The position numbers and the translations under genes were made by a program. A stretch of 64,000 bases of DNA from Candidatus Poribacteria bacterium (lineage in GTDB: Bacteria > Poribacteria > WGA-4E > PCPOR2b): assembly GCA_965218095.1 (NCBI GenBank), contig OZ244587.1, forward strand, positions 4,800,001 through 4,864,000, given 5' to 3'. Each line of letters opens with the position of its first letter. Position 1 is the first letter of the stretch. Positions 10,315 to 59,482 of this stretch are shown one piece after another. The notes beneath the pieces were generated by a model that made no database searches, was not told the DNA's origin, and was given only the letters and a program-made list of their open reading frames with translations.

Positions 10315-11232
10315 ATGTTCCTACCCATGAATCTATTTCTCCAAATCGCTCACGGTGTCATCGGGGCGGTCATCATATCCCTCTTTTTCAGCCTCAGATC
10401 TAGTTTCGGTGAAGCGCGACATACCCTCAGCATCATCGGAGCCATCGCGATTATTATTGCAAGTGGCTACATCCTGCGGACACGGCTCATCCGGTGGGGA
10501 AGTCGGCAAATCTGGTTGAAATACCATCAAAGGCTCGCATCTTTCGGATTGAGCCTTGTCTTTATCCACTCCGCCTTTCGCCCCTTCTCATGGCATTCGT
10601 GGCTGACATTCGCTCTCGCGCTGCTCAACCTTGGGACAGGCATTGCCGTGAGTCTCACTACACGGCGCACACGACGTGTCCTGCTCCGCTGTCATCTCGC
10701 CCTCGCGCCAATTTTGCTAATTGGCATCGTCGTACACGGCAGGGAAAAATTAGATCACGATGAATTCTTTCCCTTGACAGAAGAACACGATATTCCGTGT
10801 GTAAGGTGTCACACATCAGATCGGCTGCTGTTTACCATCAATTCGCGCTTTCAAAGTGATTTAGACGGTGAGGGCAATGCCTCGGATGACTTACAGTGGG
10901 AGTTTGGCCTTCAGGCGACTTCACTTTCTCAGCATGCAGCGATTTCGACGAAAAAGGGAGATGGCGGTTGGCTGATAACCGATGAGCCGAACCACCAGAA
11001 ATACATGGTCAGGAAAGTGGCAGATCGGCTGCACGTTTATGCCAATTCTCCATACAAGGGTTACACCTGTCTCACCTGTCATGTTCACAACACCCCTGAG
11101 ATTCAGTTTGCTCATGAGGCTCACGGTGTGACTTCCTATAACGCATGCTTCAACTGCCATCAAACGGTCATTGGTGGAGAAAAATATGGCAGACGAAAAG
11201 CGAACTGGGACTATAATCCAGTTAGGAAATGA
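10315..11232 (+). CDS. Membrane protein with His-containing TM domain and C-terminal triheme cytochrome c domain
   Basis: About 5 TM helices with His residues; three CxxCH motifs (CVRCH, CLTCH, CFNCH). Confidence 0.75.
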   Translation: MFLPMNLFLQIAHGVIGAVIISLFFSLRSSFGEARHTLSIIGAIAIIIASGYILRTRLIRWGSRQIWLKYHQRLASFGLSLVFIHSAFRPFSWHSWLTFALALLNLGTGIAVSLTTRRTRRVLLRCHLALAPILLIGIVVHGREKLDHDEFFPLTEEHDIPCVRCHTSDRLLFTINSRFQSDLDGEGNASDDLQWEFGLQATSLSQHAAISTKKGDGGWLITDEPNHQKYMVRKVADRLHVYANSPYKGYTCLTCHVHNTPEIQFAHEAHGVTSYNACFNCHQTVIGGEKYGRRKANWDYNPVRK

Positions 11233-11446
11233 ACAAATCAACAGCAAAAGTAGCTCACGTAGATCGTCCAATCTTGGGTCCTGGAGTGCAAAAGCTCCGT
11301 CCCGCTACGCGGGATCTTGCTTCACTAGAGACTTGTAGCGAAAACAGAGTTTTCGCACGCCGGTTGAAATTTTCCTTGACACCGAAACTTCACTTATGAT
11401 ACCCTTTGCGCACTCTCAAACGATAGACAGAAACTTAAAAGGCGCC

Positions 11447-54741: not shown

Positions 54742-54819
54742 GTCAGGACTTCACATTGGTGCGAAAAGCAATACTGTCCTTCACATATTTCTACTATGTC
54801 TGTCCAGGGAGCGGACAAC

Positions 54820-56307
54820 ATGGCAAATCCTCCTTATATCCTTTCTATAGATCAAGGCACGACTGGCTCAACGGTGTTACTCATTGACGCACACGGGGAG
54901 ATTACAGCGCACGGCTACCGTGAATTCACACAGCACTATCCACGCCCCGGCTGGGTCGAACATGATCCAATCGAGATCTGGGAAGTGACCCATCAAGTTA
55001 TCGCAGATCTGGTTAACGCACAGGGTATCGCTGATCAGATCGCGGCGATCGGCGTGACGAATCAGCGGGAAACGACGGTGGTGTGGGAGCGCAGCACAGG
55101 GCGACCGATTCACCGTGCAATCGTGTGGCAGTGCCGTCGAACAGCGGACATCTGCGCCGATCTGAAGGAGCGCGGGATGGAAGAGCTCGTGCGTGCGAAA
55201 ACAGGCCTGGTCCTCGACCCGTACTTTTCGGCGACGAAGATTGCGTGGATTCTGGATGGGATCGAGGGGGCGCGTAAGTGGACTGAACGCGGCGAACTCG
55301 CTTTCGGTACGATCGACACTTGGCTGCTGTGGAACCTGACAGGCGGCGAAGTTCACGCGACAGACTACACAAACGCCTCCCGAACGATGCTGTTCAACAT
55401 TGATACGCTTTCGTGGGATGATGAGTTGTTGGAGGTGTTCCACGTGCCTGCATCCGTTTTACCAGAAATGCAGGCTTCAGGGGGCGTTTTCGGAGAAACG
55501 AAAAATATCAACCCTTTACCTGATGGTATCCCAATCGCTGGAATCGCTGGAGACCAGCATGCTGCATTATTCGGGCAGCTTTGCACGCAAGCTGGTATGG
55601 CGAAGAACACCTACGGCACAGGCTGTTTCTTGATGCTCAACACCGGAGAGCAGCGAGTTGATTCAAAATCTGGATTGTTGACTACATTAGGGTGCAGTCT
55701 CGATGAAAAGCCGGTCTACACGCTGGAAGGCAGTGTATTTATCGCAGGGGCGGCGGTGCAGTGGCTCAAGGATGGCTTGCAGATTATCGACTCTGCGGCA
55801 GAAACCGAAGAAATCGCCATCAGCGTCCCGGATTCGGGCAGTGTCTTCGTTGTCCCAGCTTTTACGGGGCTTGGCGCACCGTATTGGGACGCAAACGCGC
55901 AGGGGGCAATTCTCGGTTTGACACGCGGCATAACCCGTGCACACATCGTCCGAGCGACGTTGGAATCGATAGCGTTTCAAACGGCTGATGTCGTCACAGC
56001 GATGTGCACCGACACAGGGATCGAACTGGATCGGCTGCGCGTTGATGGTGGTGCGGTTGTAAACAATTTCCTGATGCAGTTTCAAGCAGACGTGTTGGGC
56101 GTTGAGGTGGAACGCCCAACGCGAATCGAAACGACAGGACTTGGGGCAGGATACCTAGCGGGACTGACCGTTGGTGTGTGGAATAATATTTACGAGTTGG
56201 AATCACATCGGAAAATCGAGGTCGTTTTCTCATCACAGATCGACGCCGATCAACGAAAAGAAAAACTCGAAGGCTGGAAGAATGCAGTTCGGAGGGTGAT
56301 GAGCTAA
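54820..56307 (+). CDS. glpK: Glycerol kinase
   Basis: IDQGTTGS, TNQRETT, DPYFSATK, TDYTNASRT, AGDQ, KNTYGTGCF. Confidence 0.96.
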   Translation: MANPPYILSIDQGTTGSTVLLIDAHGEITAHGYREFTQHYPRPGWVEHDPIEIWEVTHQVIADLVNAQGIADQIAAIGVTNQRETTVVWERSTGRPIHRAIVWQCRRTADICADLKERGMEELVRAKTGLVLDPYFSATKIAWILDGIEGARKWTERGELAFGTIDTWLLWNLTGGEVHATDYTNASRTMLFNIDTLSWDDELLEVFHVPASVLPEMQASGGVFGETKNINPLPDGIPIAGIAGDQHAALFGQLCTQAGMAKNTYGTGCFLMLNTGEQRVDSKSGLLTTLGCSLDEKPVYTLEGSVFIAGAAVQWLKDGLQIIDSAAETEEIAISVPDSGSVFVVPAFTGLGAPYWDANAQGAILGLTRGITRAHIVRATLESIAFQTADVVTAMCTDTGIELDRLRVDGGAVVNNFLMQFQADVLGVEVERPTRIETTGLGAGYLAGLTVGVWNNIYELESHRKIEVVFSSQIDADQRKEKLEGWKNAVRRVMS

Positions 56308-56308
56308 C

Positions 56309-57997
56309 ATGCGTTTACAGTGGAAGTACGCATTGATTATCAATTTGTCTGTTTTGACCATTTTGGTGGCTTTTTATGCCCTGGATGAGATTAAGGCACG
56401 GAAGGATCTGAAGGATATTCACATTCAGAACGTGGAAAATGGCGCGATTTTCAGAAATATTGTGGAAAAAGTTCTTTGGCGTGTCGTAGATCAAATTGAA
56501 CGGGACAGTACATTTAATCGAGACAAAATCGAGAATGAACTTCGCAGCCTGAAAGCGCAAAATTCTGATGAGATGGGGCGCGTTGTAGATATTCATGTTA
56601 CACTCGGACGAGATGCCAGGATTCAGGCAAGCCTTAACCAGGAGTTACTGTTCAGTATTGATTTGACAGCCCTAAATCGTCCAGGCAATGGCGGCAGTAT
56701 CCTGGATATTTTGCGGCCGGAGTTTGAAAACAACAGCGTCTCACTTTCTGAGAATGCCACAATTAAGCCGAAGGATGGTATATGGCTGATTAAGGATCAT
56801 AAAAAGACTTATTCTGTCGAAAAAGAGGGAAATCGACTCAATGTTTACGTTCCGAAAGACTACTATATCAATTTTACCGGGTACGATCTTTTTGAGGTAG
56901 AACGGCATGGCGTACAGGTATATAATCTTGTCGAAAGCGAAAACGGCAAATACGCGACGGAAATGATCATCGACTACCAAACCGGTGTCATTGTCGATTC
57001 GCGGATCACAGGCTTTATTCAAGTCCTTTTTGAAGCCCCTGACATTGCCAAACATATCAATGACCTGCGTCTGATGCACCTTATTTACGTTATCGTCGTA
57101 AGTGTCTTGCTGGTCATCATTATCGATATGACCACGACCCGCCTCATTATGCGGCCCCTTGAACGTATGATGGAAATTATCAAACGTGCAGAAGCCGGCG
57201 ACTCCGAGTCTCTGCCGCAGTCCTACTCATCGGGCGAAATGGGGCGTGTCACCTACAGTCTTGTGAGAATGTTAAAGCAATTGACTGAAGCGCACTCCAA
57301 GCGGATTGCCGCACTCGGACAGTTGGCGGCGGGCGTCGCCCATGAAATCCGCAACCCCCTCAACACTATCGGGATGACGGCTCAACATCTGAAAGATCTC
57401 TTTTCACAGAAGGACGTTAAGCCGGCGGACATCAAAGAGGCTCAAGATCTCCTAGAGATTGTGAATTATGAAATCGAACACTTGAAACGGATCTCTGAGC
57501 AGTTTGTGACCTTGAATCGTCCGAAAGCACTCGACATAGAATCGACTAATCTCAGCGCGCTCCTGGATCAAGTGATTCCGGAATTTACGCTCATGATGGA
57601 GGATGCCAAAGTCGAGGTTATCAGAAATTATGCAGCGAATCTGCCGTTGCTCCAACTCGATAGCGGGTTAATTCGGCAGGCAATCTTCAATCTGATACAG
57701 AACAGCATTCAAGCCATGGCCAAGGGCGGCAGGATTTACATCACAACGAAGTTGGATCAGATGATGGTTGGTGAAGGCGTCGCGCTGGAAATTCGTGACA
57801 CCGGTATTGGGATTCCGGCGGAGATCCAAGAACGTATCTTCGATGCTTACTTCACGACGAAGGAGAGTGAAGGCGGGATGGGACTTGGGCTTGCAATCGC
57901 GCACCAGATTATTACGGCGCACCAGGGAAGGATTGAACTCAGGAGCCAGGTCGGAATGGGAACGGCATTTAAGATCTACTTCCCCATCCCCGATTAA
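56309..57997 (+). CDS. Membrane sensor histidine kinase (HAMP, HisKA, HATPase)
   Basis: AHEIRNPL H-box, NLIQNS, DTGIGI, GMGLGL; two TM helices. Confidence 0.93.
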   Translation: MRLQWKYALIINLSVLTILVAFYALDEIKARKDLKDIHIQNVENGAIFRNIVEKVLWRVVDQIERDSTFNRDKIENELRSLKAQNSDEMGRVVDIHVTLGRDARIQASLNQELLFSIDLTALNRPGNGGSILDILRPEFENNSVSLSENATIKPKDGIWLIKDHKKTYSVEKEGNRLNVYVPKDYYINFTGYDLFEVERHGVQVYNLVESENGKYATEMIIDYQTGVIVDSRITGFIQVLFEAPDIAKHINDLRLMHLIYVIVVSVLLVIIIDMTTTRLIMRPLERMMEIIKRAEAGDSESLPQSYSSGEMGRVTYSLVRMLKQLTEAHSKRIAALGQLAAGVAHEIRNPLNTIGMTAQHLKDLFSQKDVKPADIKEAQDLLEIVNYEIEHLKRISEQFVTLNRPKALDIESTNLSALLDQVIPEFTLMMEDAKVEVIRNYAANLPLLQLDSGLIRQAIFNLIQNSIQAMAKGGRIYITTKLDQMMVGEGVALEIRDTGIGIPAEIQERIFDAYFTTKESEGGMGLGLAIAHQIITAHQGRIELRSQVGMGTAFKIYFPIPD

Positions 57998-58087
57998 GCG
58001 AATCGGCAAAATCTGTGAATCACGCAATACGTTTCAGATAAGAACTTCCAGGGTAACGAAAGAATCAATTGAATGGAGGGAATGTGC

Positions 58088-59482
58088 ATGCCATCAATAC
58101 TGATTGTTGATGATGACCGGGGGCAGAGAACCGTTTTGCAGACGATATTGAAGCGTGAAGGATATGACATAGAGACGGCTGAAAACGGCATTCGCGCCCT
58201 CGAAAAAATTGAAGAAAAGATGTTTGATGTGGTTGTCAGCGATATGCGGATGGCTCAGATGTCAGGGCGTGACCTGCTTCATGAAATCAAAAAGCGGGAT
58301 GCAGATCTCCCCATGCTGATCGTTACGGCTTACGCCGAGGTGAACGACGCCGTTGATCTCGTAGCACGCGAAGGAGCGTTTTACTATCTCGAAAAGCCGA
58401 TCCGGATTGATGTCCTCAAAAAAGAGATTAAACGCGCACTCGAAATGCGGCGTGGCTTCACAGGCGATGAAAACAGCGACGAGGCGCCGGCGCCAGAAAT
58501 TCATTTCGAGCGGATTATCGGCCAAAGTGAGCGTATGCGCCAACTGTTCAAAACCATGTCTCGAATCATTCATCGCGGCGTAAATCAGGTCCTCATCACC
58601 GGTGAAACAGGCACGGGGAAAGGCCTGGTTGCGAAAGCAATTCATGACTACGGGGAACGTAAAGACAAGCTATTCTTGCCGGTTAACTGCAGCGCTGTGC
58701 CCGATACGCTGATTGAAAGCGAACTTTTTGGACATGAAAAAGGTGCGTTTACGGACGCTTATCGCCAGAAAGCTGGCGTGTTTGAGGCGGCAAATGGCGG
58801 GACAGTCTTCCTCGATGAGATCGGCGATATTTCTGTACACATGCAGAGCAAACTCCTCCACATCTTACAAGAACGTGAGATCATGCGCGTTGGGGGGGTA
58901 AAGCAGATTAAAGTTGATGTCTGCGTCATTGCGGCAACCAACAAAGATCTGAAAACGACTGTAGAAGAGGAAACTTTCCGCGAAGACCTCTACTTCCGCT
59001 TAAACGTCATTCCGCTTCACATTCCGCCACTCAGGGAGCGAATAGATGATATTCCGTGCTTGATCGATTTCTTGCTCCAAAAGTTCAGCGAAGAATACCC
59101 CGACGCGGAGCCGAAGCGCGTGACACCAAGGGCGATGTCTGCACTCCGGCGATACGAGTGGCCGGGGAATGTGCGTCAGCTTGAGAATTATCTCCACAGA
59201 ACCTTTGTGCTTTCCGAGGGTGAAGTGATAGACCTGGAAGATCTCCCGCCTGAAGTTTCGGACAGCTCATTGCCGCCAGGGGATTTTCATGTTGAGATTC
59301 CAGCGGATGGGGTTGCCCTTGAAGAGATCGTGAAGGAATACATTCGAGTTGCCTTAACCCAAACCAATGGCAACCAAACAAAAGCCGCCGAACTTTTGGG
59401 GATTTCACGTCGGCGGTTTCAGAATCGAATGCAGAATTATGGGTTTAGTAGCCAGGATTTCAAGAATAAGAATCCGCAATAA
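58088..59482 (+). CDS. Sigma-54-dependent response regulator (NtrC/AtoC family)
   Basis: Receiver (IVDDD, SDMRM), GETGTGK, ESELFGHEKGAFTDA, WPGNVRQL, Fis-type HTH. Confidence 0.93.
   Translation: MPSILIVDDDRGQRTVLQTILKREGYDIETAENGIRALEKIEEKMFDVVVSDMRMAQMSGRDLLHEIKKRDADLPMLIVTAYAEVNDAVDLVAREGAFYYLEKPIRIDVLKKEIKRALEMRRGFTGDENSDEAPAPEIHFERIIGQSERMRQLFKTMSRIIHRGVNQVLITGETGTGKGLVAKAIHDYGERKDKLFLPVNCSAVPDTLIESELFGHEKGAFTDAYRQKAGVFEAANGGTVFLDEIGDISVHMQSKLLHILQEREIMRVGGVKQIKVDVCVIAATNKDLKTTVEEETFREDLYFRLNVIPLHIPPLRERIDDIPCLIDFLLQKFSEEYPDAEPKRVTPRAMSALRRYEWPGNVRQLENYLHRTFVLSEGEVIDLEDLPPEVSDSSLPPGDFHVEIPADGVALEEIVKEYIRVALTQTNGNQTKAAELLGISRRRFQNRMQNYGFSSQDFKNKNPQ

Follow-up and report, generated by a model that had tools for sequence, protein, structure and literature searches.

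The window, by which we mean the whole 64-kb stretch of DNA analysed here, covers positions 4,800,001-4,864,000 of the single-contig, 6.35-Mb genome G000. Two of its genes, one for a membrane-anchored cytochrome and one for a sensor histidine kinase, contain copies of one 68-72-aa module, and the features of the two hosts are as follows (window coordinates, with the basis of each assignment in brackets).

10315..11232, + strand: host 1, a 305-aa membrane-anchored triheme c-type cytochrome (ORF, translation, helices, orthologues)
10798..10812, + strand: haem motif 1, CVRCH, residues 162-166 (motif, orthologues)
10817..10828, + strand: first copy of a 12-nt exact direct repeat, CAGATCGGCTGC, lying across the 5′ junction of the cytochrome module
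10819..11046, + strand: inserted stretch of 76 aa, consisting of DR, the module and AN (empty-site orthologues, families f4/f5)
10825..11040, + strand: module core, cytochrome copy, 72 aa, residues 171-242 (profile, fold)
11021..11032, + strand: second copy of CAGATCGGCTGC, 204 nt downstream, in frame, inside the module's last strand region
11068..11082, + strand: haem motif 2, CLTCH, residues 252-256 (motif, orthologues)
11146..11160, + strand: haem motif 3, CFNCH, residues 278-282 (motif, orthologues)
56309..57997, + strand: host 2, a 562-aa sensor histidine kinase with HAMP, HisKA and HATPase_c (ORF)
56645..56848, + strand: module, kinase copy, 68 aa, residues 113-180, at position A of the periplasmic loop (BLASTP, profile, orthologues)

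An earlier, sequence-only reading of this DNA had proposed that the same module sits in both proteins. Translating 10825-11040 (+) gives a 72-aa segment running from LLFTINS to RLHVY and translating 56645-56848 (+) gives a 68-aa segment of the kinase, exactly the two peptides that had been quoted. When the whole proteins are compared by BLASTP the cytochrome and the kinase align with E 4e-10 and 34% identity, the edges of the alignment fall just outside the module, and no similarity is found elsewhere, so that the pairwise match is significant and the hosts are, as had been stated, otherwise unrelated. An iterated profile built within the genome itself (41,890 six-frame ORFs) scores the cytochrome copy at E 2.3e-29 and the kinase copy at E 1.2e-21, which excludes a chance resemblance. 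Both copies had also been placed outside the cytoplasm, and this agrees with their hosts, as the kinase copy lies between two hydrophobic segments and the cytochrome copy in the c-haem part; the c-haem part of cytochromes is matured in the periplasm.

The cytochrome begins with four to five hydrophobic helices, according to helix prediction and the structural model, and continues with three CxxCH motifs. Pfam gives only weak c3/c7/NrfB-type matches, over residues 237-286, and no family over residues 1-160 (window 10315-10800); this N-terminal membrane part might represent a membrane domain for binding haem b or a metal, joined to the triheme c part. Orthologues from families f1-f3 align with the query end to end at 57-75% identity and have the module. 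In six orthologues from families f4 and f5 the match stops at about residue 169 and resumes at about residue 244, with nothing in between. The protein of G027, for example, reads ...CVKCHTS followed directly by STYETYTCLLCH..., where G000 has ...CVRCHTS, then DR, the module and AN, and then SPYKGYTCLTCH... At the empty site of the f4/f5 orthologues (...CHTS/STYETYTC..., the slash marking the junction) the host sequence is thus continuous across the gap, and the insert in G000 is exactly 76 residues long, leaving the host otherwise undisturbed. The position first given for the cytochrome copy, between haem motifs 1 and 2 (residues 171-242), is confirmed; its boundaries stand as those of the module core, and the true insert, as defined by the empty sites, extends two residues further on each side (10819-11046). 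Comparing orthologues with and without the insert had been suggested from the outset, and it yields clean-edged empty sites in the cytochrome (f4, f5) as well as in the kinase. Two further observations concern the cytochrome itself. His 36, 71, 85, 94, 127, 141, 148 and 158 are invariant among 30 orthologues, and an in-frame TGA present in many orthologues of one genus proved to be the ordinary stop codon of these genes, which end a few codons short of the query.

The kinase is laid out as a transmembrane segment (residues 7-25), the periplasmic loop with the module, a second transmembrane segment (residues 255-273), HAMP, HisKA and HATPase_c. Its orthologues have the N-terminus MRLQWKYALI in common and are 39-72% identical in the C-terminal part across the phylum, and the module is distributed among them as follows.

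Position A (after ...ARIQASL): G000 and G002, and probably G006, in which the contig is cut
Position B (about 110 residues downstream, just before ...GYIQVLF and the second transmembrane segment): G012, G008, G010, G038, G056, G078 and G117
No module: G018, G007, G004, G001, G005, G027, G033, G067, G109 and G043
Internally deleted remnant: G106

A 243-nt indel separates the kinase genes of G012 and G004, which belong to a single genus. Together with the two module sites and the module-free orthologues this indicates that the module entered the kinase gene at least twice and was lost from it several times. That the two sites are of independent origin we judge from their position, not from phylogeny; in a tree of 47 module copies, which has too few alignment columns and leaves 32 of the 44 inner branches open, the position-B kinase copies cluster together and apart from the position-A copy. 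In the G106 kinase (L068, G106:C140) most of the middle and end of a position-B module is deleted (...ILDEGTLQHDV, a gap, GWR and a further gap), and this remnant is decaying in frame. The kinase gene is preceded by a glycerol kinase gene (54796-56307) and followed by a gene for an NtrC-type sigma-54-dependent response regulator (58073-59482), and the sigma-54 gene of this genome also carries a module copy (G000:C1:1974906-1975142).

The module is not confined to these two proteins. Searching the whole genome with the cytochrome segment returns 15 places, and the iterated profile settles at 16 copies, distributed over 15 ORFs that are all open frames free of stops; decayed, intergenic or out-of-frame copies were not seen in the whole-genome search. 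By Pfam the other hosts are RpoB (with two copies), SecA, SecD, sigma-54, CtaA, a Wzy_C O-antigen ligase, YibE/F, an AI-2E-like protein, an ABC exporter, DUF5916/CBM9 and DUF5683 proteins and two HEAT-repeat proteins. The SecA copy lies inside the wing/scaffold domain and the sigma-54 copy inside the core-binding domain (Pfam), and with RpoB these are cytoplasmic hosts; the copies in the cytochrome, the kinase, SecD P1 and a loop of CtaA are extracytoplasmic. Cysteine is absent from 15 of the 16 copies. At the DNA level the copies are ∼66-74% identical over alignments longer than 90 nt, with shorter local matches of up to 86% (pairwise blastn), so the module is not recognisable as a nucleotide repeat family. 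The exception is the pair of RpoB copies, which are 84% identical and sisters in the copy tree (support 99).

Across this sponge-associated phylum, named Poribacteria according to record titles, the module occurs in 117 of 121 sampled genomes, with 1-41 matches in each; G002, with 39, and G006, with 41, are rich in copies. All 41 genomes of the same order, this one included, have it (5-41 matches), and genomes of the other class (families f7 and f8) have 11-15 matches each. The module-free genomes, all 89-95% complete, are G044, G045 and G109 of family f5 and G067, the one genome sampled from family f6; the fourth f5 genome has one weak match. The contrast between module-free f5/f6 and the 11-15 matches in the distant class is explained either by wholesale loss or by separate invasions. 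With 16 copies in 15 proteins of one genome, this distribution and the clean empty sites, the description of the module as promiscuous, lineage-expanded and inserted in frame has held.

Extending the profile search to public databases, another check proposed at the start, retrieves 2,408 proteins at E ≤ 0.001 and 858 at E ≤ 1e-10 from a library of 1.84 billion representative proteins, counted irrespective of taxon and with up to seven module copies per protein. Among the best 150 representatives, 81 were scanned with Pfam, and their hosts include pentapeptide-repeat proteins, SpoIIE phosphatases, Cache/HAMP/CHASE2 sensors, a caspase, BamA-type POTRA proteins, MotB/OmpA, TssG, ComEC, RseP, signal peptidase, KaiC and a KAP NTPase. 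Between different proteins the median module identity in the best 150 representatives is 31% and the maximum 86%, and near-identical copies in different proteins were not found in that set. Most module sites are common to four genomes of one genus, and the combination of genus-wide common sites with the lack of near-identical copies indicates that the activity which spread the module is ancient or very slow. Tandem arrays of three to seven modules, often ending pentapeptide-repeat proteins, occur at G002:C1:2775893-2776741 and 3255940-3257406 and in P0003 and P0012; such arrays could be the original home of the module or the source of its copies.

For the other class we compared 28 module-bearing ORF fragments of G041 and G042, in which two to three loci can share one ORF so that the distinct hosts are fewer, with the proteins of G000 after masking the module. 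For 17 of the 28 there is a G000 homologue at E ≤ 1e-5, a best hit being no proof of orthology, and just one of these 17 matches a module-carrying G000 protein. This is SecA, in which the module occupies a different site (after about residue 505, as opposed to 703-774 in G000). In addition, G041 has the module in RpoC, not in RpoB. To judge from these matches, the other class and G000 have hardly any hosts in common.

A degenerate DNA pattern for one motif of the module, run against a named genome collection, occurs in 28 places, 26 of them with the module. Most matches are in records titled Candidatus Poribacteria, and three in an 'uncultured bacterium' record belong to the same genome as G001. 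Four further matches fall in metagenome-assembled genomes labelled KSB1, Nitrospiraceae, Phycisphaerae and Pirellulales, which have one or two copies each (L083, L095, L096, L102, L108-L112). Copies under such outside labels may reflect mis-binning, mislabelling or transfer, and mis-binning is possible since one KSB1 contig is syntenic with G000 at 2.144-2.150 Mb, with 54-73% amino-acid identity. One strict pattern found no match in viral contigs, a narrow test that is silent on absence.

Predicting the fold of the module, likewise an early suggestion, gives a confident small alpha/beta domain (AlphaFold2 with a 16-row alignment; pLDDT 93.1 and pTM 0.79 for the module alone). The predicted elements are a strand at 3-6, helices at 7-14 and 21-29, and strands at 39-43, 48-53, 58-65 and 68-71. 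The same elements appear at residues 171-243 of a model of the full cytochrome built with 30 orthologues, with pLDDT ∼85 over the module and 31-55 in the haem flanks. The module is hence predicted to fold autonomously, as a strand, two helices and a four-strand meander. No Pfam-A 2025 or NCBIfam release 20 family covers it in the two hosts of the window, the 13 others or the 81 scanned representatives, the best NCBIfam value being E 0.019 in one of 16 copies. Structure searches gave no clear match either, with nothing at E ≤ 0.001 from Foldseek against the PDB, a best Z of 4.2 and no Z ≥ 5 from VIA-align among 48,161 chains, and a best E of 0.2 from a profile search of the PDB sequences. An ESM Atlas query with cytochrome residues 171-242 matched nothing but cytochrome clusters, whose scores of 0.78-0.80 fall short of the useful range. 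The best-conserved positions of the module, taken from 380 aligned copies in the best 150 representatives, are Y72 (100%), W49 (97%), L2, L13 and L69 (91%), F3 (89%), L34 (88%), F27 (86%), L23 (85%), Y60 (83%) and D53 (79%), and make up, for the most part, a hydrophobic core. A homodimer prediction with two module copies (score 0.00, mark 0.42) says nothing either way on self-binding.

Estimated from 14 cytochrome orthologues of a single genus, the dN/dS of the module is 0.19, and that of the host is 0.078 in the membrane part and 0.079 in the haem part (80-91 usable pairs, dS ∼0.65). Identity to G000 in the same set is 35-61% for the module and 60-82% for the host parts, and the module evolves ∼2.4 times faster than its host. 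Judged by these rates it is translated and under purifying selection that is weaker than on the host. The two metatranscriptome runs provide short contigs over parts of the gene only, the uncovered parts being uninformative. One contig of a sponge library (X11, 491 nt, from a relative) matches 10735-10781 and 11053-11105, and the 271 diverged nt between these matches equal the corresponding window segment in length. It suggests, weakly, that the relative's RNA retains the segment, DNA carry-over in the library being possible.

On balance we think it somewhat probable that the module is an ancient, repeatedly inserted coding element, now slow or inactive, that is selfish or nearly neutral and not a tag for a common function. 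In such a model unrelated poribacterial genes would, over the history of the phylum, have received internal copies of the module on many occasions, in frame and in sense, and the surviving copies would mark sites that tolerate an extra compact domain, such as the stretch between haem motifs 1 and 2 or the periplasmic sensor loop of the kinase. Once inserted, a copy would be inherited vertically, selected for foldability less strictly than its host, and occasionally deleted; its autonomous folding would allow it to be tolerated on either side of the membrane. The copies would have spread as DNA by copy-and-paste, whether through a transposition system now extinct or through recombination of the illegitimate or template-switch kind, and most hosts would gain nothing from the module. 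The sequence-only reading had offered two ideas, a localisation or interaction tag of extracytoplasmic regions and a selfish in-frame coding insertion. The tag finds no support, given the cytoplasmic copies in RpoB (twice), SecA and sigma-54, the core hydrophobic character of the conserved positions and the losses from the kinase. The selfish insertion fits better, but a DNA-level signature of mobility was not found.

It is also conceivable, and we hold this only tentatively, that the module is a domain-level transposon, that is, a stretch of coding DNA under selection for nothing more than a harmlessly folding product and moved by a dedicated recombinase, a reverse transcriptase or template switching. 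If so, it would have remodelled RNA polymerase, the Sec translocase, sigma-54 and envelope and signalling proteins across a phylum, and its spread would amount to exon shuffling in prokaryotic form, with a selfish module as the driving force.

A functional alternative, which we judge rather unlikely, is that the module is an adaptor or regulatory domain recruited repeatedly for a common partner, ligand, surface, switch or degradation signal. It would account for the purifying selection on the module (dN/dS 0.19) and for its retention in the cytochrome across f1-f3 and in essential proteins. The near-invariant W49, Y72 and D53 could form a binding surface, and arrays of three to seven copies resemble a working repeat domain. 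However, copies are found on either side of the inner membrane, which makes a single partner confined to one compartment unlikely, and the hosts have no common pathway. The kinase has two module sites and has lost the module in many lineages, the conserved positions are mainly core hydrophobics, and the module changes faster than its host, all of which weighs against an adaptor.

We consider it improbable that the module is a non-autonomous DNA transposon of the MITE or Rickettsia palindromic element (RPE) type, readable in frame by chance and moved by a transposase. Repeated in-frame insertion into unrelated genes does have a precedent in the Rickettsia elements as presented in a MITE review (PMC10969869), and the secA copy has the 7-nt repeat GACGGGA exactly at both junctions. 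Yet a junction repeat of at least 7 nt also occurs in 9 of 240 mismatched control pairs, and the remaining copies have junction repeats of 4-6 nt, as in the controls. The 12-nt repeat of the cytochrome copy is longer than any in the 240 mismatched pairs (longest 8 nt) and is not placed at both junctions. A consensus of 30 cytochrome orthologues has SE-x before the module in place of DR, so this repeat seems particular to the present genome. The first RpoB copy (G000:C1:1015541-1015582, L009) has at its 5′ junction the host residues WKSA (TGGAAGTCTGCT), which recur 9 nt further on, in the diverged first strand of the module, a local duplication of 12 nt judged by eye. The junction repeats hint at slippage or microhomology events and at no defined element. 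In the present-day copies terminal inverted repeats or a hairpin beyond the amino-acid constraint were not found against synonymous resamples: terminal complementarity is 8.69 matches compared with 8.39 ± 0.29, a value equalled by 19% of the resamples, and the folding energy shows no excess (mean z +0.53); an older signal may since have decayed. The homology is visible mainly at the protein level, the nucleotide identity being low; G000 has no intergenic or out-of-frame copies; and a transposase-type domain is absent among the 81 host proteins scanned from the best 150. The present-day copies thus lack two hallmarks of a classical MITE or RPE mechanism.

That the module is an intein-like or intron-like element removed from protein or RNA, self-splicing introns and IStrons included, is practically inconceivable: although the module sits in frame in the essential RpoB and SecA, and inteins often sit in frame in essential proteins, it starts with L, F or Y and ends with the invariant Y and a variable residue, with no Cys/Ser/Thr nucleophile and no His-Asn, just as the sequence-only reading had noted the absence of C/S..HN termini; 72 aa is far below the size of a mini-intein; no Rfam family matches 10600-11250 at E ≤ 1; the RNA-library contig of the relative keeps a segment of equal length; and purifying selection at the codon level means that the module is translated, so that termini, size and selection together exclude both mechanisms.

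Domain gain in bacteria is usually pictured as fusion at an end. The poribacterial module lies instead inside unrelated proteins that number in the dozens, RNA polymerase, SecA and sigma-54 among them, at lineage-specific sites and with persistence over the depth of a phylum. If it is a selfish coding element it would be a second, much older example of the Rickettsia phenomenon, selected at the level of the protein fold, and the movement and survival of in-frame mobile modules would become directly testable. As a natural insertion-tolerant domain it marks, by its sites, permissive loops in many essential proteins, and it confounds annotation and orthologue alignment in Poribacteria.

In open-access full text and bioRxiv we found no description of the module, from Poribacteria or elsewhere, but several known systems resemble it in part, the Rickettsia palindromic elements most closely. 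According to the MITE review, these elements are ∼150-bp palindromic DNA repeats found in frame inside unrelated genes (PMC10969869). They have in common with the module a short element, many in-frame copies in unrelated genes of one lineage, and tolerance of the added peptide. The differences are that the Rickettsia elements are described as palindromic and recognisable as DNA repeats (PMC10969869), whereas the module is ∼213 bp long with no inverted repeat or hairpin excess, its copies have only ∼66-74% DNA identity over their longer alignments and are conserved as a confidently predicted globular domain, and it spans a whole phylum, in which different families have orthologous copies. Inteins and bacterial intein-like domains are likewise self-contained in-frame inserts in essential proteins with variable presence among orthologues; the module differs in having no splicing residues, in being about half the size of a mini-intein and in showing nothing that suggests removal. 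The lineage-specific insertion domains of the RNA polymerase beta and beta′ subunits, reportedly described by Iyer, Koonin and Aravind in 2004 as including sandwich-barrel hybrid motif modules, are also extra domains in loops of RpoB and RpoC in particular phyla. To our knowledge, the sandwich-barrel hybrid motif insertion modules are confined to RNA polymerase, in contrast to the poribacterial module, which has no clear match to a beta-sandwich or any other solved fold and is present in SecA, SecD, sigma-54, kinases, cytochromes and transporters as well. Finally, PepSY, LysM and BON are small autonomous domains that occur in many architectures, as the module does; unlike these, the module has no Pfam or NCBIfam model, occurs in the cytoplasm and in the periplasm, and is mostly found inside other domains, not appended to them.
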